From Patescibacteria group bacterium (GTDB lineage Bacteria; Patescibacteriota; WWE3; UBA101185; UBA10185): a stretch of 64,000 bases of DNA. Shown piece by piece: positions 7,373 to 63,895 of this stretch. A program made the translations under genes and the position numbers. The notes beneath the pieces are model-generated. The model was not told where the DNA came from. It did not search any database and was given only the letters and a program-made list of their open reading frames with translations. The stretch lies in contig JAHJEV010000001.1 in NCBI GenBank assembly GCA_018825365.1, positions 57,601 through 121,600 on the forward strand, written 5' to 3'. Numbering within the stretch: position 1 is the first letter of the stretch; each line of letters opens with the position of its first letter.

Positions 7373-8095
7373 TTACCAAGAACCCCCAAGTTCCTCTAAA
7401 AGTTTTTTTGTATACTTAACAATTGGGATTATTTTTTGGTAGTCTAGTCTTGATGGTCCAAGAATGGCTAGGAAACCTCCCTTGTCCCCCACTTTGTAGG
7501 GCGTGAATATAATTGTTGATTTTGTAAGGTTTTCTACGGGGATCTCATCACCAATTAGTGTGTAGATTTCTCTTCCTGGGGCCACACTCTGGAAAATTCT
7601 ATCTAAAATTTCGTAGCTGTCTAATATTCTTAGTGCTGATTTTGCTATATCTATGTCCCAAAATTCTTTATGCTCCAAAACATTTACTGTCCCCGCAGAA
7701 GTTACGAACGCTTCGTCAGTTGTAGCTATAGATAAGCATCCGGTTGCCTCTGCCATAGCAAGAGTAGTTTCTCTCAAAAGTTTTTCCATCTCAAATCTAT
7801 TTGTCCAAAGTCTTTGTTTTAATGCGACTTCTTGTAAAACAGGAAGCTCTTCTTCCTGCATAAGTTCGTCTATATACATTCGATAAGCCATTTTTGTAGG
7901 AACTCTTCCGGATGATGTGTGGAGCATTTCCAAAAATCCTTGGTCAATAAGTTTTGCCATCTCGTTTCTTATTGTGGCTGGGGAGCAATGGAGATTGTAT
8001 TTCTGAACTATCTCAACCGAGCCTACCGGTTCGGCCGTGTTTATATAATCGTCTATTATTGCTTGAAGCAATTGAACCTGTCTTTCGGTCAACAT
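7373..8095 (-). CDS. hrcA: Heat-inducible transcription repressor HrcA (compact)
   Basis: N-terminal 'LTERQVQLLQAIIDDYINTAEPVGSVEIV...ATIRNEMAKL' winged-helix typical of HrcA. Operon context with grpE-dnaK. At 240 aa it is shorter than typical HrcA. Confidence 0.8.
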   Translation of the reverse strand: MLTERQVQLLQAIIDDYINTAEPVGSVEIVQKYNLHCSPATIRNEMAKLIDQGFLEMLHTSSGRVPTKMAYRMYIDELMQEEELPVLQEVALKQRLWTNRFEMEKLLRETTLAMAEATGCLSIATTDEAFVTSAGTVNVLEHKEFWDIDIAKSALRILDSYEILDRIFQSVAPGREIYTLIGDEIPVENLTKSTIIFTPYKVGDKGGFLAILGPSRLDYQKIIPIVKYTKKLLEELGGSW

Positions 8096-9925: not shown

Positions 9926-9991
9926 GAGGTGATTTTACTATAAAAGATAACAAAAAGTGCGGAAGTTTGGTTATGCTTCCGCATTGAATTA

Positions 9992-17324: not shown

Positions 17325-18173
17325 TTATAAAGAAAGCTTTCTTATTGTGTCCTCAATTAATTTCGGTAAGTTTTCCACGTCCTCGTGGGTGTGATTATAA
17401 CCCAAAACATTAAGACATGAAAAAACAATTCCGATATCAGTATATATTTTATCTGCAAATTGGCAGGCAACAAGACTGTCTATTAAAACATTTCCTCCTA
17501 TCTCGCCAACTCTTGATTTTCCGCATCCCATCGGACAGTTTGAACAGGAAGGGTAGACGCCCCTTTCAACTCTAAGATCAGAAGTTCTTGCAAGTATTGT
17601 TTTATATAATCTTTGATATTCTTCAAAATTTTCCGGGGAGTATACTTCGGTTCCTGTTATTACAAGGCCTTTTAGATTTTTTTGGACGAACGCCTTCTCT
17701 AGATGGTTTTCAGGAGTAGTAAAATAATTGTCCAGGAGAGTCTTATTGTTTTCGTGTCCAATTACACTTCTTTTTCCCGGAAGCCCCAAAGATCGAAGGT
17801 CCATAGCCTCGCCGTGAAAGGTCGTTTTAGTGTTTAGTATTTCTACTACCGTTTTCTCTTCCGCCTTTTTGCATATCACGATTGCGTCGATTCCTGCGAA
17901 TCTCATTCTAAGAGAAAGACTTCCGCCGATATAAAGGTCCTCAATTGAGCCTTCATCATTCAAAACCACAGCCGTTTTTGATGCAAAAGGAAAAAATCCG
18001 TTTAGAGGCCCAATTGCAAAGACAACAGGTTCCTTGTCGGCATAAATTTCAAGAAGCTTTAAACCTAACCCAACACCCCCAAGGTATTTATTTAGGTCAA
18101 CAAAGCTGTTAACATCGGACTCTTTTTTAGCTAGATCTATTACCAAGACTTTTTTAGCCGATAAATCAATCAT
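17325..18173 (-). CDS. Truncated aldehyde:ferredoxin oxidoreductase family protein (AFOR N-terminal domain plus CxxCxxxC only)
   Basis: 'GGVGLGLKLL...PVVFAIGPLNGFFPFASKTAVVLNDEGS...GGSLSLRMRFAGIDAIVICKKAEEKTVVEI' aligns to the AOR N-terminal domain. 'CSNCPMGC' matches the AOR [4Fe-4S] ligand motif. At 282 aa there is no room for the pterin-binding domains. Confidence 0.55.
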   Translation of the reverse strand: MIDLSAKKVLVIDLAKKESDVNSFVDLNKYLGGVGLGLKLLEIYADKEPVVFAIGPLNGFFPFASKTAVVLNDEGSIEDLYIGGSLSLRMRFAGIDAIVICKKAEEKTVVEILNTKTTFHGEAMDLRSLGLPGKRSVIGHENNKTLLDNYFTTPENHLEKAFVQKNLKGLVITGTEVYSPENFEEYQRLYKTILARTSDLRVERGVYPSCSNCPMGCGKSRVGEIGGNVLIDSLVACQFADKIYTDIGIVFSCLNVLGYNHTHEDVENLPKLIEDTIRKLSL

Positions 18174-22921: not shown

Positions 22922-24895
22922 GTGTCTGAAAATTCTTCCGAACTTTTTAAGAGATTAAATCCAAAGCAGGTAGAGGCCGTGAAACATCTTGACGGTCCCG
23001 CTTTGGTTGTTGCCGGCCCCGGAAGTGGCAAAACCAGAGTTCTGACCCATCGTGTTGCGTATCTTATTGAGGAGTGTAATGTTCCCGAGACAAATATTTT
23101 GTGTGTTACTTTTACAAATAAGGCAGCCAACGAGATTAAAACCAGAGTTTCCTTATTGCTATCAAAATCAGATGGTGACACTAAACTGCCTTGGGGAGGA
23201 ACCTTTCATTCAATCTGTTCGAAGATTCTAAGGAAGGATGGGTACGAAATAGGAATTGAACCCTCATACGTAATTTATGACACTGACGACTCCTCAGTTC
23301 TTATAAAAGGAATAATAAAAGACTTTGGAATAGATTCAAAAAGATTTAATCCAAGAGGTGTTTGGGAAACAATTTCCAGTGCAAAGTCAGAGCTTGTAGG
23401 ACCGTCAGATTATGATTCTTTCGCCCAAGGATACCATCAAAGAACGGTTGCAAAAATTTACCCCGAATACCAAAAAAGGATTAGGGATAACAATGCCTTG
23501 GATTTTGATGATTTGTTAATGGAAACGGTGAGGCTTTTTATTCAAGCTCCAAGGATTTTGGAAAAGTATCAGAAGCTTTTTAAATATATTTTGGTTGACG
23601 AATATCAAGATACAAACAAAGCTCAATATGTTTTAACAAAACAGCTATCCGATCTTCATAAAAATTTGTTTGTTGTGGGGGACATGTCTCAGGCTATTTA
23701 CAGTTTCAGAGGTGCCGATTTTAGAAACATTTTAAATTTTCAAAGGGATTATCCGAAAGCTAAGGTTTACAACTTGGAACAAAATTACCGATCAACCCAA
23801 ATAATTTTAGATGCCGCAAAAAATGTTATTAAAAACAATTCAACTCATATTCCTCTTGATTTATGGACGGAAAACAAGAGTGGGGAAAAGATTGTGGTTT
23901 ATTCCGGAGGTACGGACAAAGAGGAGGTCGAATTTGTTATTAGTGAGATCACAAACCAGCTCCTAACCGGAAAAGCTTTTTTGGACATAGCGATTTTGTA
24001 CAGAACCAACGCCCAATCAAGAAACATGGAAGAAGCTTTGATAAAAAACAACATTCCATACAGGATTTTTGGAGGTGTGAGGTTTTATTCCCGTAAGGAA
24101 ATTAAAGATGTTGTGGCATTTTTACGTGTAATTCACAATCCTAAGGATTCTGTTTCTTGGAAAAGGATAGTAAACACACCTCCTCGTGGGGTAGGTCAGA
24201 AATCCGTTGAAAAGCTAAAAGATAAAAAATGGGACTTAGAAGAAATTGAAAAAGTATCTAAACTTCCAATTAAAAAATGGATCGACAGCAAAAGCGTCCT
24301 TTCAACTTTAGAACTCATGGAGAGGGTTTTAGCGGACACGGGGTATATTAAATGGCTTGATGACGGAACAGAGGAAGCTTTAAGTAGAATAGAAAACATT
24401 AAAGAGTTAAAGTCCGTCGCATCTTTGTTTGTAGAACTTCCGGACTTTTTAGAGAATGTATCTTTGATAGAAAACTCTGAAAAGCCAAGTCAATCCAATG
24501 TCGAGGGAGTAACTCTTCTTACAGCGCACGCTTCAAAAGGTCTGGAATTTCCAGTTGTATTTATCATCGGAATGGAAGAAGGTTTGTTTCCTCATTCACA
24601 GTCGGTTGAGCAGCAGCAGGAGCTTGAGGAGGAAAGAAGACTTTGTTATGTGGCGATAACCCGCGCGAAAGAAAGGGTTTTTATGACAAATGCCAGGTCC
24701 CGTCTTTACTTTGGAAATATCCAGGCCAACCTTCCGAGCAGATTTTTGTCGGAAATTCCTAAGGAACTGATGGATTTTAAGGGAATTGATTTCACAAGCT
24801 ACTTTGGAAAAGGGATTAACGGAATGAAAAAAATATCGGATTCGGATTTTCTTGATGAGCCTGACGACGATAGGGGATTTTTTAGTTGGAACTAA
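22922..24895 (+). CDS. UvrD/PcrA-family DNA helicase
   Basis: 'VVAGPGSGKTRVLTHRVAYLI', 'LVDEYQDTN' and 'TAHASKGLEFPVVFI' motifs. 657 aa. Confidence 0.85.
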   Translation: MSENSSELFKRLNPKQVEAVKHLDGPALVVAGPGSGKTRVLTHRVAYLIEECNVPETNILCVTFTNKAANEIKTRVSLLLSKSDGDTKLPWGGTFHSICSKILRKDGYEIGIEPSYVIYDTDDSSVLIKGIIKDFGIDSKRFNPRGVWETISSAKSELVGPSDYDSFAQGYHQRTVAKIYPEYQKRIRDNNALDFDDLLMETVRLFIQAPRILEKYQKLFKYILVDEYQDTNKAQYVLTKQLSDLHKNLFVVGDMSQAIYSFRGADFRNILNFQRDYPKAKVYNLEQNYRSTQIILDAAKNVIKNNSTHIPLDLWTENKSGEKIVVYSGGTDKEEVEFVISEITNQLLTGKAFLDIAILYRTNAQSRNMEEALIKNNIPYRIFGGVRFYSRKEIKDVVAFLRVIHNPKDSVSWKRIVNTPPRGVGQKSVEKLKDKKWDLEEIEKVSKLPIKKWIDSKSVLSTLELMERVLADTGYIKWLDDGTEEALSRIENIKELKSVASLFVELPDFLENVSLIENSEKPSQSNVEGVTLLTAHASKGLEFPVVFIIGMEEGLFPHSQSVEQQQELEEERRLCYVAITRAKERVFMTNARSRLYFGNIQANLPSRFLSEIPKELMDFKGIDFTSYFGKGINGMKKISDSDFLDEPDDDRGFFSWN

Positions 24896-25002
24896 CCACC
24901 TTGGTGGTGTGGGTTTTAGTTGGTACGTTTGTTGTAATAAAAATAAGGAGCCTAGTTTTTATAACCTAAGCTCCTAACATTTACTCTCTATAGCACGCGA
25001 CG

Positions 25003-27300
25003 TTATTCCGGGTTGATTGAAAAATTCTCGGCATCCGCGGCCTTGATTTGAAGCTGAAGTGCTTTGATCTCACCCTTGGTTGTCTTTAGCGTAATCACTC
25101 CGGCAACCTTAATCTTGTCCCGCCTCTCACCGTTGAGAAAGTCAAAAACATCCGAATCCAATTCGTCAAATGTCCAAACGTTAGTGTCGATACTCGGCAG
25201 GTCATAATCTGTGTCAAAAAAGTAAACCACGGGCAGATAGGGCTCCTCAGGATCCTGATCAGTGATTTCGATCAACACGCCCTGAACACCATCGCCGTGA
25301 ACATTTTTGATGTTGCGTGCGAGAACAACATCTTCCTCGACCTCGGTGTATTCGATGGCGTATTGCTCCGTATCTTTGGTATCAATTTCGACCTTTACCA
25401 ACTTTGCAGACCCGCCGTAGTCAACAATATCGACGAACCTTAGCGACTTGGTGGACCCCGGATCCTTCATCGCTTCGCACAAGTCTGTGTCTATTTCTGT
25501 GATATCCACTTCCTCGAACGACTCAGAAGATCTGCTTAAATCAACGGTTTCCCCATCGAAAAGGTACAATTGATCGGAGTACTCTTTATTCACAGGCTGT
25601 TTGGTAATCACAAGGACAAAGCCTTGGATATCATCACCATATTTTTCCTTCAGGACACGCTCGATCATAACACTATCATCAACTTCTTCTCCCTCGATAT
25701 CGAATATGTTGCACGCGTCGTCCGCGGTGATTTCAACCACCAGCAACCTGACTCCATCGCCCAGTGTTTCTACACCCACAATCTTGGCACGATTTTGATA
25801 GTCGGTTCCCATGAGGAATTCCTCAAGTGATGAGAATGTTCCATCCAGGCTTTGATCATCATGAGTGGAGTCGATATTTTCAAGACCACTTATGTCTTCT
25901 CCCTCGAATGGAAACACAAGATCGTTGTAGTCGATGTCTTTGGGCTGGTCTACGATCCTCACGTACACGCCCTGTACCTCATTTCCGTATTGCGCACGGA
26001 TTTTCCGCTCAATGATCTCGCTGTTTTCCAGCTCCTCGCCTTCAATACCGAAACGATCCGCGTCGTCAGCTCGGATATGGACTTCAAGCAGTTTTGAGAC
26101 ACCAAGGTATGTTATGATTTCTGCAAAAACCACCTCGGGCCGTTCCTGCTCACCACGGAAAATTTCTTCCAAGTCAGAATCCGACATGTTGTCGAGCTCG
26201 CGAATGTGAAATTCAGTACCTGAAGCTTCTAGGGCATCCAATGCCTGCACTGTCTCCTCATCGAAGGGATAGACTTCGTCTGGGTAGCAGTAGTTGTCAG
26301 GGACGTCAATGATTTTGACAACAAGTCCCCGAACTGACGAGTTCCTTGCTAAGATTTCTCGGACACGTTTTACAACGACCGCACTGGTCTCGACTTTCTC
26401 GTACGGAAGGTCATATTCCTCAGCCGCTTCTACATCTATTTCGATCTTCAGTAGCTGCACAACGTTTGCAAAGTTGACCAGTCCGACGATTTTCGACAGC
26501 GCCGGTGTATCTCCAGTGAGAAGAGCGTTTGTCAGTTCGTGAGGCATATCATCAAAGCTGCGGAGATTTCCAGGATCTTCAACTTTCCGAAGCCTGTCAT
26601 CGGTCTCCGTATTGAAGGTATAGATCTGCGGAAGATAGACCACAGTATCAGGAAAACCTGTTACAACAAGGACTACGCCCTGAGTCTGCGAACCATATTT
26701 CCTTCGCAGTTTTCGGGAAATGCGGGTAGCCTCGTCCTGGTATTCCGGCAAGATGTCAAAAAGTTCGGCATCTTTGGCCTTAATACGAATCTCCAGAAGC
26801 AAAAAATTACCAACTCGCGTAGTTCCAAAGTCCTGTGCGAGGGTTTCGCCCTGATTGATAACGGTTTCGTCCCGTCTTTCTAGCATAGCTGCTAGTTCCG
26901 GATTAAGATCGGCCATTCTTTCTACATCATACTCGGTGAATCCTCCTTGTAAGCCCGTAGACCTTGGTGTACCTCCAAAAAGGTAGATTCTCGAGCGGTA
27001 TGACTCGTCTTCAGGCACATCGGTAATCGTAACCAAAATGCCTTTTACAAAGTTGCCGTACTTAGATGTGATGGCAGATACCACTGTCGAGATACTCGCG
27101 AGATTGCTGCTAACCACCTTTTTAATGGCGAAAGCAAACAGTCTTGCTAACACAAACGCTGGAAACGCAAACAGCAAGAACAGCACAAGAAGGGTTTCAG
27201 CAGTTACCTTCACGATCTCCCTTCCCACTAAGAACGCCAGAAATGCGTACACTGTCAGTACCAGCGTTCCGACGACAAGTAAAGTACTAAGTTTCTTCAT
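25003..27300 (-). CDS. Membrane-anchored acidic tandem-repeat protein (6 x ~115-aa repeats), unknown function
   Basis: 765 aa. Two N-terminal TM helices. A repeated module appears at least five full times plus partial copies. Each module has a core 'LL.VEI.A.DAE.F.IEGEE...IERKIR..YG..VQGV.V.I.D.P...Y.D.VY.FD.E'. Coding GC is about 50% against a roughly 35% background. AAGGAG RBS. Confidence 0.6.
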   Translation of the reverse strand: MKKLSTLLVVGTLVLTVYAFLAFLVGREIVKVTAETLLVLFLLFAFPAFVLARLFAFAIKKVVSSNLASISTVVSAITSKYGNFVKGILVTITDVPEDESYRSRIYLFGGTPRSTGLQGGFTEYDVERMADLNPELAAMLERRDETVINQGETLAQDFGTTRVGNFLLLEIRIKAKDAELFDILPEYQDEATRISRKLRRKYGSQTQGVVLVVTGFPDTVVYLPQIYTFNTETDDRLRKVEDPGNLRSFDDMPHELTNALLTGDTPALSKIVGLVNFANVVQLLKIEIDVEAAEEYDLPYEKVETSAVVVKRVREILARNSSVRGLVVKIIDVPDNYCYPDEVYPFDEETVQALDALEASGTEFHIRELDNMSDSDLEEIFRGEQERPEVVFAEIITYLGVSKLLEVHIRADDADRFGIEGEELENSEIIERKIRAQYGNEVQGVYVRIVDQPKDIDYNDLVFPFEGEDISGLENIDSTHDDQSLDGTFSSLEEFLMGTDYQNRAKIVGVETLGDGVRLLVVEITADDACNIFDIEGEEVDDSVMIERVLKEKYGDDIQGFVLVITKQPVNKEYSDQLYLFDGETVDLSRSSESFEEVDITEIDTDLCEAMKDPGSTKSLRFVDIVDYGGSAKLVKVEIDTKDTEQYAIEYTEVEEDVVLARNIKNVHGDGVQGVLIEITDQDPEEPYLPVVYFFDTDYDLPSIDTNVWTFDELDSDVFDFLNGERRDKIKVAGVITLKTTKGEIKALQLQIKAADAENFSINPE

Positions 27301-27413
27301 GTCTCTCTCCTTTTATATGGGATATGTAAAAGAGACTCTACTACGGGTTAATTTGCTTGTCAAACCTGTTTTATATGGTTAAATTTGTAGCGGGGTATTT
27401 GTGAGCTTATAGT

Positions 27414-27442
27414 TTGACAAACAAACTGGCATATGTTATAAA
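27414..27442 (+). promoter_or_regulatory. Promoter of the nfeD-flotillin operon (TTGACA-N17-TATAAA)
   Basis: TTGACA 27414-27419, 17-nt spacer, TATAAA 27437-27442. A mirror-image TTGACA for the divergent gene sits at 27358-27363 on the minus strand. Confidence 0.45.
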
Positions 27443-27495
27443 TCACGTTAACAATAAGGGAGCAATCCCATACTCATGTAGAAAAGGAGAGAACT

Positions 27496-28062
27496 ATGAT
27501 ACTTTCGTGGATTTTTGCTGGACTGATGATCCTTGGAGGCAGCTTTTTTGTATTTAGCCTGCTCCTCGGAGGCGTTGGAGACTCGCTCGGGGATATGTTT
27601 CACGGGCTTGATTCAGCGCTTGAAAGCATCGGGCTTGACTTAATACCTGACAGTTTCGAACACGGCTCGGGAGGCGCCGGATGCATTACCATCCTGGCCT
27701 TCATCACTGGGTTCGGAGCTGCTGGCTTGGTGGCATCATTATTCGGCGCGAACGCTTTAATTTGCGTTTTGGCCGGGATTCTATTTGGTGTCATCGTCGG
27801 CGGAATTTACGCTGGGATCACTAAACTGATCATGAGTCAGCAATCAAATTCGTCAACTACCGATGCAGACATAGTCGGCAAGACAGCGCATATAACGGTC
27901 GAAATACCGAAAGGCGGTGTCGGACAAGTAATGCTGACTACCCAAGGCGGAACCCGCCCCTACCCGGCCTGTTGTGTAAATAACCAGGCGGTCGTGAGAG
28001 GGCAATCCGTAAAAGTCATCTCTGTGGAAGGAGGCAGGTTATACGTAGAAAAAGTTGAGTAA
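27496..28062 (+). CDS. nfeD: NfeD-like membrane protein (short form, C-terminal OB-fold)
   Basis: Glycine-rich TM helices. C-terminal 'KTAHITVEIPKGGVGQVMLT...GQSVKVISVEGGRLYVEKV' is a beta-barrel. Sits immediately upstream of an SPFH gene. Confidence 0.7.
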   Translation: MILSWIFAGLMILGGSFFVFSLLLGGVGDSLGDMFHGLDSALESIGLDLIPDSFEHGSGGAGCITILAFITGFGAAGLVASLFGANALICVLAGILFGVIVGGIYAGITKLIMSQQSNSSTTDADIVGKTAHITVEIPKGGVGQVMLTTQGGTRPYPACCVNNQAVVRGQSVKVISVEGGRLYVEKVE

Positions 28063-28118
28063 ACTTTTACCGTAAGCTACCTCAATCATATTCAACTCTA
28101 GATAAAGGAGAAGGTTCT

Positions 28119-29633
28119 ATGGATCTAACTGGATTACTTCCTACGATCGCATTGGTGGTAGGAATCATTGTCGTACTCCTGGTAGCGTTCTTTGCAATTT
28201 CCAGGGCTACGCGTCTCTATCACCGTGTACCTCCCAGCCAAGTGCTGGTTGTCTTCGGACGTGGTAAAACACAGTTCGATGCAGACGGAAAACAGGAAAA
28301 GACCGGCGTACGTTTCATCACCGGTGGTGGCGGCGTAGTGCTTCCAATTCTGGAAGAATGCACCACTATCGACCTGACCGTAATGACGATTACACAGAAC
28401 AAGGACCGAGTGTATTCGACCGACGGTGTTGCTGTCAACCTCGATTGGGTTGCACAGGTGAAGATAGCTGAAGATCAGCATTCACTCGCAACAGCCGCGC
28501 GTACTTTCCTGGGAAAAAGTACGAACCAAATTGTCCAGGTGATTACCGAAACCCTTTCGACGAACTTCCGGGCCATCGTGGGCCAGATGACTGTTGAAGG
28601 CGTGCATCGTGATCGCGATGCCTTCGTCCAGGCTGTCCAGAAATTGGCAGCGGATGAAATGACGGCCATGGGTGTGCGGATTATTTCCATGGGAGTCAAA
28701 GAGATCACCGATGACCTCGGTTACTTTGAAGCAATGGCTGCTCCGAAGATCGCTGAAGTGATGCGCGATGCCAAAATCGCTAAATCTTTGGCCGACCAAG
28801 CTGCCCGCGAACAAGAGGCAAAATCTATGTTGACCGCTCGTGAAGCTGAACTTCACACTGATGAAGTTATCGCTCAGAAAGAACGCGATGTTGAGCTTCA
28901 GAAGGTCGATAAGAATAAGCAGGTCGGTCTCGCCCAAGCAGACGCGGACAAAGAAGTGCAAACCAAAAAGGCTCTGGCCGTTGCACAACAACAGGAAGCC
29001 GAAGTACTGGTTCCTGCTCGCGCTGCCAAGGAAGCTGTCGAGATCAATGCGAATGCGGCAAGGTCGAAGACAGAAACAGAAGCTGACGCAAATGCCTATT
29101 CGAAGAAGACAGCAGCTCAGGCTGAAGCCCAAGCTGTAACACTCACCGGACAGGCTACAGCCGATGCCAATAAGGCAAAACTGTTTGCTGAAGCTGAAGG
29201 CACGAGGGCAAATCTTCTCGCTGAAGCCGAGGGCAAGCAGAAGATCGCTGAGGCCACCGCCGCCGAAGGTGAAGTTAACCTTCGTCAGTTTGTTGCGGCT
29301 GAGCTTATCAAAGCTCAGCAGGCAACTGGCATTGCTTTTGCTGCTGCCATGGGCCAGATTGGTGAAAACGTCAGGATCGTTCAGATTGGCGATATTCCAG
29401 CCGAAAAGAACGGACTTCTCGGTATACTGCAACAGGCCCCGCTCATTGCTGTTCAGCTCAACGAGCAAGTCAAGGCCCTCACCGGCGGTATGTCGATCGA
29501 ACAGGTTCTTACACAGGTTGCTGGTACTCTCAAACTGGCTGGGAAAACCCAAGCAGATGTTAAGACACCGAGTAGCAACGAAGAATCTGCCGCTGACATT
29601 TCTGGAAAGAAAGGTAAGAAGCTGACAAAGTAA
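28119..29633 (+). CDS. floT: Flotillin-like SPFH/band-7 protein
   Basis: N-terminal TM helix, an SPFH domain, then long Ala/Glu-rich coiled-coil with 'AEAEG' repeats typical of flotillins (FloT/YqiK). 504 aa. Confidence 0.8.
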   Translation: MDLTGLLPTIALVVGIIVVLLVAFFAISRATRLYHRVPPSQVLVVFGRGKTQFDADGKQEKTGVRFITGGGGVVLPILEECTTIDLTVMTITQNKDRVYSTDGVAVNLDWVAQVKIAEDQHSLATAARTFLGKSTNQIVQVITETLSTNFRAIVGQMTVEGVHRDRDAFVQAVQKLAADEMTAMGVRIISMGVKEITDDLGYFEAMAAPKIAEVMRDAKIAKSLADQAAREQEAKSMLTAREAELHTDEVIAQKERDVELQKVDKNKQVGLAQADADKEVQTKKALAVAQQQEAEVLVPARAAKEAVEINANAARSKTETEADANAYSKKTAAQAEAQAVTLTGQATADANKAKLFAEAEGTRANLLAEAEGKQKIAEATAAEGEVNLRQFVAAELIKAQQATGIAFAAAMGQIGENVRIVQIGDIPAEKNGLLGILQQAPLIAVQLNEQVKALTGGMSIEQVLTQVAGTLKLAGKTQADVKTPSSNEESAADISGKKGKKLTK

Positions 29634-29653
29634 AATAACATTGTAACCCTCGC

Positions 29654-29700
29654 TACGAGGATAGAGTTTCACAAAATTCTATCCTCGCTTTTTTATCCCT
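29654..29700 (+). terminator. Rho-independent terminator after flotillin
   Basis: GAGGATAG-(14 nt)-CTATCCTC followed by GCTTTTTTA. There is an additional short CCTCG/CGAGG stem just upstream. Confidence 0.5.
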
Positions 29701-29957
29701 TTAAGATGGTCGGACCTTACCCCAAACGTAATACTTAATTCATTCAAAATATTAAATAACTTCTCAGCATTGTATCTTCATATTTGATCTGAGTCATCTT
29801 TTTAAGATTCTTAGACTTGTGCTCGACTGGTTGCGTGGGAACCGGTCGGAACTTTACCTAGGATTGAACCCCTTTTTCTACCAGTTTCCGTTATTAAGTT
29901 TGTATACCCTCTGAATCCATATCCAATATCTTCTACCTTCTAGTGTAAAATATACCT

Positions 29958-30728
29958 ATGTACGAGCCGATAAAATCATTGGGCCAGAACTTTTTGGTAG
30001 ACAAACAGTTAGCAAGAGATATGGTGAGCGCGTTGGATATTGCAAATGGGGATATCATTGTTGAAATAGGGCCTGGACTTGGGTCATTAACTGAAATTCT
30101 TGCAGAAAGTATTAGTGGAACCAATAGCGAGTTGAATGCTGTTGAGGTGGACGAGAGGTTTTTTGGAAAACTAGTTTCAATGTACGCGGATGAGCAAAAC
30201 ATTAAAATTATCAATGCGGATATTTTGGAATGGCTTCCTAATTTTGAGTCACCGCACGATTTTAAAATAATAGGGTCGCTGCCTTATTACATTACTTCTC
30301 CAATTATTCATTCAATTATCAAAATGAAAAAAAGACCAGCTGTGTGTGTTTTATTGGTGCAAAAAGAGGTTGCCGGGAAGATAAAAAGTCCCGCTCCCGA
30401 TTCTTCTTATATGTCTTGTTTTATACAGACATTTTTTGATGTTTCTTATATCGGTAAGGTGCCTAAAAACAGATTTAGACCTGAGCCGGAAGTTGACGGG
30501 GGGATTTTGAAATTTGTTAGAAAAGAGGGGGATTTTTCGCCTGAATTTATCGTCAAATATGAAGCGTTTCTTCACAAAGCTTTCTCAAATCCAAGGAAAA
30601 TGCTAAATAAAATGTTCACAAAAGAGGAATTGGAAAAAGGAGGGATTGACCCCACACTGCGAGCTCAGAATCTTAATTCTTCTCAATGGCTTGAGTTTTA
30701 TAAAGTTTTAAATCAAGGAAATTCATGA
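29958..30728 (+). CDS. rsmA: 16S rRNA (adenine1518/1519-N6)-dimethyltransferase
   Basis: 'LGQNFLVD' and 'VEIGPGLGSLT' are KsgA/RsmA hallmarks. 256 aa. Confidence 0.9.
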   Translation: MYEPIKSLGQNFLVDKQLARDMVSALDIANGDIIVEIGPGLGSLTEILAESISGTNSELNAVEVDERFFGKLVSMYADEQNIKIINADILEWLPNFESPHDFKIIGSLPYYITSPIIHSIIKMKKRPAVCVLLVQKEVAGKIKSPAPDSSYMSCFIQTFFDVSYIGKVPKNRFRPEPEVDGGILKFVRKEGDFSPEFIVKYEAFLHKAFSNPRKMLNKMFTKEELEKGGIDPTLRAQNLNSSQWLEFYKVLNQGNS

Positions 30729-62067: not shown

Positions 62068-62221
62068 TTTAATGCTGAAGTACTATTCAGCTCTTGTACA
62101 TTGAAAATTTCCTTTGAGATTTTGAGTTTTCAAGATCATTAAGGCGAAAAGAACGGGTGCTTTGATGAATATCCCCTAACGCATTTGTGGATATTCATTA
62201 AAAGTAATTTAGCTTTTTATT

Positions 62222-63895
<1,674 letters not shown>

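Follow-up and report, generated by a model that had tools for sequence, protein, structure and literature searches.

The DNA analysed here, a 64,000-nucleotide stretch of contig JAHJEV010000001.1 (hereafter the window), belongs to the small genome of a WWE3 (CPR) bacterium and carries a GC-rich island of approximately 4.7 kb at positions 25003-29633. Only three genes are contained between its terminators: an ORF on the minus strand encoding a 765-aa repeat protein (rep765, 25003-27300) and, divergently oriented on the plus strand, nfeD (27496-28062; 188 aa, YuaF-like and of the NfeD2 type) and a flotillin gene (28119-29633; 504 aa, FloT-like, SPFH2), which follows nfeD on the same strand after a gap of 56 nt. 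The left neighbour is uvrD/pcrA (22922-24895) and the right neighbour rsmA (29958-30728), as assigned with Pfam, and the island edges fall at terminators, not at repeats. On the left, folding of 24925-25005 revealed an intrinsic-terminator-like element on the minus strand (24935-24975), in which a hairpin at 24946-24975 with a 10-bp stem (GGAGCUUAGG/CUAGGCUCC) is followed by a U-rich tail (UUAUUUUUAUU; dG -21.7, z -3.05); it is located at the 3' end of rep765, between the convergent uvrD and rep765 genes. On the right, an intrinsic terminator 3' of the flotillin gene (29656-29695, plus strand) is composed of a 14-bp stem at 29656-29687 with a 4-nt loop and a subsequent T run, CTTTTTTAT (dG -19.0 kcal/mol, z -6.78). 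Both the position between these two genes and the bracketing hairpin terminators had been described in the initial annotation of this DNA and are borne out. No integrase or transposase gene was identified in the island, no tRNA in the window and no direct repeats spanning the island edges.

The composition of the island deviates markedly from that of its surroundings. The GC content of rep765, nfeD and the flotillin gene is 0.470, 0.506 and 0.515, and their GC3 0.507, 0.524 and 0.495, respectively, as against means of 0.377 +/- 0.020 (maximum 0.420) for GC and 0.351 +/- 0.025 (maximum 0.394) for GC3 among the 45 other window ORFs of at least 150 aa, while past position 29600 GC drops to 0.31-0.37. 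Tetranucleotide analysis likewise sets the island apart, the distance of 25001-29600 from the backbone profile being 16 SD above 96 non-overlapping windows. The earlier estimate of about 50% GC for the three genes (47-51.5%) and the mention of GC-rich third codon positions (0.50-0.52) are thus substantiated, whereas the backbone, given as roughly 35%, is in fact at about 38% GC, 35% being its GC3. Recoding of the island proteins with the synonymous codon usage of the backbone yielded a GC3 of only 0.34-0.35, and the GC3 shift is therefore not due to amino acid content. The synonymous codon usage of the island differs from that of the backbone (r 0.60) and is similar to that of a second island (see below; r 0.85) and to that of an Anaerolineales genome (r 0.83).

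In the rep765 product, a membrane hairpin of two helices at the N-terminus precedes six acidic repeats of approximately 115 aa, the two-TM architecture originally ascribed to it. A Kyte-Doolittle scan positions the hairpin at 27136-27282 (minus strand), with TM1 at aa 7-25 (27226-27282), TM2 at aa 37-55 (27136-27192) and a loop of 11 residues, while AF2 predicted helices at 6-28 and 34-63. The repeat region (25006-27108, minus strand) is divided into units u1 (26746-27108), u2 (26392-26745), u3 (26038-26391), u4 (25690-26037), u5 (25348-25689) and u6 (25006-25347), each of 114-121 aa, with a pairwise identity of 19-32% and the secondary-structure order H-E-E-(h)-E-H-E-E-H. The gene contains no tandem repeat at the DNA level, indicating that the repeats are old. 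Acidic residues (D+E) account for 19.5% of the protein as against 9.7% for K+R, and its soluble part has a pI of 4.27 and a net charge of -78. Since K+R residues are more numerous in the N-tail and C-flank combined than in the loop, as they are in all five family members, the positive-inside rule predicts an N-in/C-in topology with the repeats on the cytoplasmic side. Neither the whole protein nor any of 12 units produced a consistent match in Pfam at E<=10, and no match was obtained in NCBIfam, PADLOC or PHROGs; the best hit of the rep765 profile among PDB sequences (E 0.081) was only a 38-residue peptide, structural modelling yielded no confident model with a significant match, and no recognisable catalytic motif was detected. 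As our literature search found no paper tying a rep765-like protein to flotillin, the initial remark that it has no described counterpart also holds.

The two genes facing rep765 are the NfeD and SPFH/flotillin pair that had been proposed. NfeD possesses three hydrophobic segments (residues 1-29, 60-85 and 82-114, approximately), and scores below the 29.1-bit cut-off of the Pfam NfeD family PF01957 (E 0.0015, 19.1 bits). A profile built from three orthologues matched the soluble domain of Bacillus subtilis YuaF (2k14) over residues 118-184 with an E value of 4.2e-4, and PH1510-C (3wwv) weakly (E 1.4), and the C-terminus of NfeD looks like an OB-like domain. The flotillin displays an N-terminal TM segment (aa 9-27, mean Kyte-Doolittle value 3.17), a Band_7 domain (PF01145, residues 36-223; E 6.4e-27, 95 bits against a cut-off of 23.6 bits) and a long A/E-rich coiled-coil region, and phmmer aligned its residues 65-418 to chains 9bq2 and 9l3g of the human flotillin-1/2 cage (E values between 3.7e-37 and 1e-32). 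Its score against the NCBIfam FloT model NF058507 (230.3 bits) is under the 700-bit equivalog cut-off, and it is a FloT relative, not a FloT equivalog. The order nfeD-then-flotillin is also observed in loci L001, L006, L092 and L093, and the NfeD-SPFH2 operon type has been described previously (PMC2636767).

The 195-bp intergenic region between rep765 and nfeD (27301-27495) was analysed by a promoter scan and for inverted repeats. On the minus strand the rep promoter comprises a -35 box TTGACA at 27363-27358 and a -10 box TAGAGT at 27340-27335, while a candidate nfeD promoter on the plus strand comprises TTGACA at 27414-27419 and TATAAA at 27437-27442. Both -35 boxes are located within a 14-nt inverted repeat, GTTTGACAARCAAA, the ribosome-binding regions of rep765 and nfeD are near-identical (AAAAGGAGAGA), and three loci share the promoter stretch CSCGTWGTARART 5' of rep. 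The divergent units may be co-regulated.

A profile search of 1.84 billion representative proteins retrieved five members of the rep family, all from CPR bacteria. HMMER identified six repeat stretches in four of these and five in P0125, and the best cross-protein match of a unit was the unit at the same position in 57 of 120 cases, the chance expectation being 20. The family is new and CPR-specific, very rare and fast-evolving. Inspection of gene neighbourhoods showed that rep adjoins SPFH genes in three loci. The same divergent trio is present in a second genome, between topA and rpsB (the second island; L001-L003, L091 and L094), with identities to the window of 72% (flotillin), 58% (NfeD) and 37% (rep), and the gene of a third member, P0123 (locus L088), diverges from an SPFH gene across a 223-bp spacer. 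The L088 SPFH protein, an incomplete fragment of 280 aa, lacks a TM segment and does not significantly resemble the window flotillin; such pairing with a non-orthologous SPFH extends the rep-SPFH link beyond common descent. At L090, two tandem rep paralogues lie after topA and a UPF0182 membrane protein gene, with no SPFH gene in the available 8.9 kb, and the contig stops 50 bp past the second paralogue. As the family has five members, linkage statistics are thin.

Between five and six WWE3 relatives maintain the gene order gapdh-trx-dacB-uvrD-[X]-rsmA-GT2-fem-fem, X denoting the site at which the window carries the island. Site X is empty in L010, where uvrD and rsmA are approximately 50 nt apart, and is occupied by unrelated genes of host-like GC in L008, L009 and L012; the trio is absent from site X in the syntenic WWE3 relatives, and tblastn of the three island proteins against 80 loci returned no match. 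Because the site is empty or otherwise filled in relatives, the trio is to be regarded as an insertion, and we consider insertion together with conservation of the module highly probable. This evidence is independent of composition and supports a foreign origin; of the earlier proposal, horizontal acquisition is consequently upheld, while no higher-GC donor host or partner could be pinpointed. The named relatives of the flotillin are Chloroflexota, none of the 120 best matches is another Patescibacteria-labelled flotillin, and in a neighbour-joining tree rooted on a Bacillota sequence, which carries no support values and has mostly unnamed tips, the WWE3 flotillin pair nests among Chloroflexota-labelled sequences, whereas the rep protein is confined to CPR. 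The nearest non-WWE3 flotillin-NfeD pairs are without rep, two of them having a different small acidic partner downstream. Each of the four host lineages exhibits the same GC offset of +8 to +15 points; this shared excess is not accounted for by a single recent transfer, nor is its occurrence in four diverged hosts as one old transfer predicts.

In the bacteria that have been studied, flotillin scaffolds and their NfeD partners assemble into oligomers at the cytoplasmic membrane face, where they confine or stabilise client proteins. We propose, judging the chances of the reading as a whole to be evenly balanced, that the island is a horizontally acquired and mobile CPR membrane-organisation module in which rep is an SPFH partner. 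The block would be self-contained, with two transcription units that diverge from the common 195-bp region and that each end at a terminator. One unit would represent a standard nfeD-flotillin operon, providing an SPFH scaffold of the FloT type together with a YuaF-like partner, while the other, rep765, would be anchored through its hairpin and would present six acidic alpha/beta domains on the cytoplasmic side, where the flotillin assembly also lies. Rep765 may then serve as a dedicated SPFH partner, either as a client held in a flotillin microdomain or cage or as an adaptor that recruits other factors. A functional partnership of rep with SPFH has a slightly less than even prospect, and a physical link between rep and flotillin may likewise be envisaged.

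The closest known arrangement is the yuaF-floT operon of B. subtilis and other bacteria, with which the window operon shares the nfeD-then-flotillin order, the NfeD membrane segments, probably the C-terminal OB-like domain (which matches YuaF), and the N-terminal anchor, Band_7 domain and long coiled coil of the flotillin; it differs in having no yuaI-like third gene, in the divergent gene for a 765-aa repeat protein and in its CPR host. NfeD binds flotillin directly on the cytoplasmic side (PMC11222466), and SPFH cages, namely HflK/C-FtsH and the flotillin cage, enclose membrane clients (PMC11260169). The likeness to these cages, a functional analogy only, lies in an SPFH scaffold and a linked membrane-anchored protein whose soluble part is predicted on the scaffold side, although FtsH is a protease, which the putative window client is not. 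The orientation differs as well, HflK/C facing the periplasm and FloT-type proteins the cytoplasm. In the flotillin-associated rhodopsin clusters of streamlined aquatic bacteria (PMC10308929), conserved genomic linkage in small genomes likewise ties a flotillin gene to a membrane protein that is lineage-specific and of unknown role, but the partner described here is no rhodopsin: it has two TM segments and six alpha/beta repeats of a new kind, belongs to a far rarer family (five members) and is situated in an island of foreign composition. B. subtilis has a pspA-ydjGHI (samGHI) system that relies on membrane proteins to recruit an SPFH protein from the cytosol (PMC8581546; bioRxiv 10.64898/2026.02.06.704340), and a role of rep at L088 as membrane recruiter of SPFH would fit this precedent since a membrane-hairpin protein is likewise paired there with a TM-less, albeit fragmentary, SPFH protein; this again is only an analogy, as rep is related to YdjG/YdjH neither in sequence nor in fold and pspA is absent from the neighbourhood. 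Finally, the donors of most transfers into Patescibacteria were found to be other Patescibacteria (PMC12455944), in keeping with a module shared among CPR genomes. The genomic islands reported there are similarly compositionally deviant blocks in streamlined CPR genomes, but the window island is devoid of integrase, transposase, tRNA and flanking repeats, and its cargo is a membrane-scaffold module as opposed to metabolic or defence genes (no PADLOC match).

Alternatively, rep may be unrelated to flotillin, being an independent lineage-specific membrane protein located in the same variable, GC-rich accessory stretch and co-transferred with nfeD-flotillin. We deem this unlikely, though worth serious attention: the L090 paralogues adjoin UPF0182 and no SPFH gene is visible there, rep is always missing from flotillin operons of other genomes, and the window and L001 arrangements may share ancestry and could stem from one ancestral island. 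Against this, the divergent pairing persists at 37% rep identity and in differing genomic contexts, P0123 is paired with an SPFH that is not orthologous, and both WWE3 flotillin copies found adjoin a rep gene.

Slightly less likely is the reading that the module has long resided in WWE3-like CPR bacteria as an ancient accessory, mostly lost and sometimes relocated, whose high GC would reflect gene-specific constraint and not import. The 72% flotillin identity between the islands does equal housekeeping divergence (uvrD 65-72%, topA 66-72%), and the GC offset is alike in all four host lineages; nevertheless, island locations differ, site X in syntenic relatives is empty or otherwise filled, and the flotillin nests among Chloroflexota-labelled sequences. 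The excess, moreover, sits in synonymous third positions, for which we know of no selective cause, and the nearest flotillin from elsewhere is encoded in a low-GC genome with a host-like GC3 of 0.34, which shows that such genes do ameliorate.

It is also conceivable, if distinctly improbable, that rep is N-out/C-out and displays its acidic domains extracellularly, where they might serve an episymbiotic CPR bacterium in adhesion or in interaction with its host, an arms race accounting for its rapid evolution. The family shows no signal peptide or cell-wall anchor, however, the positive-inside rule favours N-in/C-in in five of five members, and the partner genes act at the cytoplasmic face (PMC11222466).

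The assembly or binning chimera raised at the outset, in which a GC-rich block of another organism would have been joined to a CPR contig, might be suspected because composition shifts sharply at either edge and because one public scaffold with the sister module, PFVN01000097 (labelled Moranbacteria), continues beyond an N gap into DNA of 31% GC. It is nevertheless rejected with near certainty, since both junctions recur in two further assemblies, namely NCBI contig JBDRTJ010000062 (99.96% identity, 6 mismatches in 15.8 kb) and the Logan assembly of SRR26275509, which was produced by a different assembler and spans 24337-30092 (1 mismatch in 5756 bp). Moreover, terminators and not repeats mark the edges, CPR sequence flanks the sister island in four assemblies, and the identical rep765 protein is recorded under three NCBI accessions.

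Five true members of the repeat-protein family (P0001, P0002, P0123, P0124 and P0125; 753–776 aa, with five or six units matched in each) were recovered in a full HMMER search of 1.84 billion cluster representatives using a 12-unit profile; for P0123–P0125, nearer relatives on longer contigs may exist. A further candidate, P0126 (611 aa, E 3e-6), proved to be spurious, being a short-motif match in an unrelated Ig-like repeat protein, while a scan of metagenomes re-found the P0002 locus and yielded no further loci. In the window, the gene for the 765-aa member (rep765; 25003–27300, minus strand) faces nfeD (27496–28062; 188 aa) and a Band_7/SPFH (flotillin) gene (28119–29633; 504 aa), both on the plus strand, with uvrD/pcrA (22922–24895) as the left and rsmA (29958–30728) as the right neighbour of this island. 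The same divergent trio lies between topA and rpsB at the sister loci L001–L003, L091 and L094, where the flotillin, NfeD and repeat protein are 72%, 58% and 37% identical to the window copies, and where the module has a GC content of 0.51–0.555 against approximately 0.43 in its flanks; the best named relatives of the L001 topA product belong to WWE3 (63–66% identity). At a third type of locus (L088 and L089; module GC 0.465–0.54 vs 0.38–0.39), a 223-bp spacer separates P0123 from a divergently oriented SPFH gene, topA converges on the other side, and the SPFH protein has no TM segment and no significant similarity to the window flotillin. The repeat protein is thereby paired with a different SPFH protein in another genome. 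At L090 (967–8807), topA is followed by a gene for a UPF0182 membrane protein (976 aa) and by P0124 and P0125 in tandem, the two paralogues being 29% identical and all three genes being GC-richer than the adjoining topA (0.44–0.48 vs 0.39); this contig ends 50 bp past the second paralogue, beyond which an SPFH neighbour is possible. The initial annotation had asked whether homologues of the repeat protein recur beside such genes, and an SPFH neighbour was indeed present in the window, L001-type and L088-type loci.

One of the sister loci, L094 (PFVN01000097.1; GCA_002790635.1), is labelled Candidatus Moranbacteria and carries a module 99.8% identical to that of L001. It contains N runs at 2426–2438 and 7606–7642, one inside the flotillin gene and one at the switch to 31%-GC DNA. 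Assignment of this module to Moranbacteria was rejected, as the scaffold's low-GC part, which may account for the label, is linked to the rest through an N gap and the module's real flanks are WWE3-like by topA; neither label nor join looks reliable.

The most economical reading of the linkage would be that the repeat protein and the SPFH assembly constitute a functional unit, in which the SPFH scaffold would lie against the membrane on its cytoplasmic face, with the hairpin-anchored, six-domain acidic protein acting as its client or adaptor. HflK/C enclosing FtsH offers an analogue of such a scaffold with its client (PMC11260169), membrane proteins that recruit cytosolic SPFH proteins offer one of the adaptor role (PMC8581546), and the flotillin-associated rhodopsins, likewise defined by gene linkage only, provide a precedent (PMC10308929). 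What is unusual is the presence of a flotillin pair in CPR, its compositionally foreign insertion and its invariable association with a repeat protein confined to CPR. We tentatively propose that the repeat protein may be a dedicated client or organiser of a CPR SPFH assembly, with a previously unseen fold, and that the unit may be passed horizontally from one ultra-small bacterium to another as a plug-in membrane-compartment module. That the repeat protein is an unrelated passenger appears rather doubtful, as its linkage recurs with a second SPFH type. Its function is read from gene context only, in five known members from uncultivated hosts. Since client lists are long and indirect, the role of bacterial flotillins is debated, and the present system is a minimal case, in which a flotillin, its partner NfeD and a single large linked protein are maintained by a genome far smaller than 1.5 Mb. 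Should the linkage be a physical one, the two would form a defined scaffold-partner pair, and if the protein is indeed a dedicated client, flotillin function could be read from a single obligate partner and not from dozens of clients that are only loosely defined.

As a pair, nfeD and the flotillin gene are of an ordinary type, with the gene order of the classic NfeD2-SPFH2 operon (PMC2636767), and NfeD and flotillin are known to bind one another at the cytoplasmic side and to stabilise clients (PMC11222466). The 504-aa protein comprises a hydrophobic N-terminal anchor (residues 9–27) and a Band_7 domain, and aligns with human flotillin-1/2, for which cage structures exist, over approximately 350 residues (E 1e-37); because its NCBIfam FloT score (230 bits) falls under the 700-bit equivalog cut-off, it is considered a FloT-like flotillin and not a strict orthologue. 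The 188-aa NfeD has three hydrophobic segments, and its C-terminal 60–70 residues, which score below threshold on Pfam NfeD, match the structurally solved soluble domain of B. subtilis YuaF when a three-sequence profile is employed (E 4e-4). Among the best 120 flotillin homologues (43–55% identity), eight of the ten that are named belong to Chloroflexota and none carries a Patescibacteria label except the query itself. In a neighbour-joining tree rooted on a Bacillota sequence, which is without support values and has mostly unnamed tips, the two WWE3 flotillins group as sisters nested in this Chloroflexota-labelled set. The nearest outside flotillins, P0011 (on a 40%-GC contig, with a host-like operon GC3 of 0.34) and P0030 (on a 314-kb contig of 49% GC), are encoded in operons where a gene for a small acidic helical protein comes after NfeD-flotillin and the repeat protein is absent.

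In the operons closest to the WWE3 pair, a conserved acidic helical protein of 129–136 aa is encoded directly 3′ of the flotillin gene (L092, 3713–4123; L093, 9735–10124). These two proteins are 37% identical to each other and show a weak match to DUF445 (E 6e-4); such a gene is absent from the window, and kinship of the repeat unit with them was rejected (hhalign probability 0.15%). On the Anaerolineales contig L006 (3108–8518), genes for an ECF sigma factor, two unknown proteins and a LiaF-like/Toast_rack protein lie directly upstream of an NfeD-flotillin pair, an arrangement reminiscent of yuaFGI in Bacillus, which is under sigma-W control (PMC2636767).

The GC content of rep765, nfeD and the flotillin gene is 0.47, 0.51 and 0.515, and their GC3 is 0.51, 0.52 and 0.50, against means of 0.377 (sd 0.020, maximum 0.420) and 0.351 (sd 0.025, maximum 0.394), respectively, for the 45 other ORFs of the window, where the 16S rRNA gene accounts for the sole other GC-rich stretch (62–64 kb). 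A 4.6-kb segment covering the island lies 16 SD from the backbone tetranucleotide profile. When the island proteins were recoded with backbone codon preferences, GC3 fell to 0.34–0.35, so that synonymous choice, and not amino-acid content only, carries the shift; island codon usage correlates at 0.60 with its own backbone, at 0.85 with the L001 sister island and at 0.83 with an Anaerolineales contig. The initial description of this composition was accurate save for the backbone GC, which is corrected from 35% to 38%. Backbone-level GC resumes immediately outside two hairpins, one with a 14-bp stem and a T run 3′ of the flotillin gene (29656–29687; z −6.8) and one with a 10-bp stem and a U-rich tail 3′ of rep765 (24946–24975, minus strand; z −3.05), and no tRNA, integrase, flanking direct repeats or att-like repeats were found at the island edges.

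The window belongs to a metagenome-assembled genome of Patescibacteria (CPR). Its uvrD is 63–72% identical to that of genomes with the same local gene order, which bear the label candidate division WWE3 or, in some cases, are mislabelled Saccharibacteria, and the order gapdh-trx-dacB-uvrD-[X]-rsmA-GT2-fem-fem-(961-aa helicase) is kept in five to six related genomes. Site X is empty in L010 (approximately 50 nt, ~9927–9982), holds a secreted 3D/G5-like protein gene in L009 (9936–10711) and L012 (5107–6390; 244–274 aa in the two, accompanied in L012 by a 131-aa membrane protein) and an 886-aa S8 peptidase gene in L008 (9951–12923), these fillers being host-like in GC. Relatives of the three island proteins were encoded in none of the 80 fetched loci. 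Since relatives are empty or differently filled at this point and lack the trio, the uvrD-rsmA junction is a variable spot in WWE3 and the trio the cargo of one lineage, which bears out the horizontal insertion first suggested from composition and provides a clean example of gene insertion into a CPR genome, the site being empty in a relative. The 324-bp spacer before rsmA holds no remnant of the relatives' 3D-domain gene and no Rfam match. A phage origin was rejected (no relative in IMG/VR and no PHROG match), as was homology between hyp129, encoded upstream of uvrD in the window, and hyp128, which adjoins the sister island in L001 (16% identity, negative score).

In each of the four host lineages the module exceeds its flanks by 8–15 GC points, and yet its copies have diverged to the same degree as the housekeeping genes of the hosts. 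A single ancient transfer fits poorly, since its composition should have ameliorated by now, which seems to have happened to the P0011 operon. The excess would be explained by repeated delivery from a GC-richer pool that is unsampled and might consist of other CPR, as Patescibacteria receive most of their transfers from Patescibacteria (PMC12455944). A GC-richer donor of the module was not found. The alternative that the module is an old resident with constrained GC would accommodate the housekeeping-like divergence of its copies, and is unlikely in view of the empty or otherwise filled site in syntenic relatives.

Rep765 has two hydrophobic helices (residues 7–25 and 37–55) separated by an 11-residue loop, followed by six units of 114–121 residues with a mutual identity of 19–32%; its soluble part has a pI of 4.27 and a net charge of −78. 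Self-BLASTP gave no off-diagonal matches, the repeats being visible only by anchored alignment and HMM, and a recent repeat expansion was rejected as there are no DNA-level tandem repeats. The five members share 20–39% pairwise identity compared to 66–72% for their hosts' topA fragments, which indicates that the family evolves fast, while cross-member unit matches fall at the same position in 57 of 120 cases against 20 expected by chance, placing the six-unit architecture before the divergence of the family. In all five members K/R residues are more numerous in the N-terminal tail and the flank after TM2 than in the loop, which predicts a cytoplasmic location for the two termini and therefore for the repeats. 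The reading as a surface protein is distinctly improbable given this predicted orientation.

AlphaFold2 modelled unit 4 from the 12-unit alignment, a shallow one, with a pLDDT of 86.1 and a pTM of 0.78 (order H-E-E-(h)-E-H-E-E-H). A full-length model, likewise from a shallow alignment, of five sequences, repeated this pattern six times (pLDDT 76.6, pTM 0.43), although at this pTM the inter-domain arrangement is not defined. The initial annotation had recognised no described counterpart of the protein, and neither the whole sequence nor any unit matched a curated family in Pfam, NCBIfam, PADLOC or PHROGs. The confident unit model matches no solved structure, and the protein represents a new family, so far CPR-only. 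The invariant repeat residues (G, A, Y, P, F, R and D) form no catalytic pattern, which points to a probable structural or binding role.

Within the 195-bp region between rep765 and nfeD, a sigma-70-like rep765 promoter (10/12; TTGACA, 17 nt, TAGAGT) and a candidate nfeD promoter found by eye (TTGACA, 17 nt, TATAAA) were located, and a 14-nt inverted repeat contains both −35 boxes. A shared operator was rejected, as this inverted repeat is not kept in L001 or L088. The sole conserved element of the divergent control regions across loci is the rep promoter stretch, a −35-like box followed by CSCGTWGTARART, which is kept in the window, L001-type and L088-type loci. The 5′ leader/RBS regions of rep765 and nfeD (27297–27317 and 27479–27499) are near-identical inverted copies (AAAAGGAGAGA..ATGA, 17/21 nt), the nfeD version being also kept in L001.

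An assembly chimera, which the initial annotation had offered as an alternative to horizontal acquisition, is ruled out for the island and has practically no likelihood left, as the Logan assembly of SRR26275509 covers 24337–30092 including both junctions with one mismatch and contig JBDRTJ010000062 (GCA_043824185.1) carries the same DNA with six mismatches over 15.8 kb aligned. The small sequence differences indicate that these assemblies are not copies of each other. The 765-aa protein has three NCBI accessions and is identical in sequence to entries named 'hypothetical protein [Patescibacteria group bacterium]'.

Elsewhere in the window, a 282-aa ORF with AFOR_N (aldehyde ferredoxin oxidoreductase N-terminal) as its only domain lies at 17325–18173, between pgk and tpi of a gapdh-pgk-tpi cluster. 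The 16S rRNA gene is located at 62216–63634 (1287 bits; a match of 1419 nt against a 1533-position model), and its 3′ end is overlapped by a group I intron match at 63588–63842 (55 bits, E 3e-11), rRNA insertions being known in CPR.
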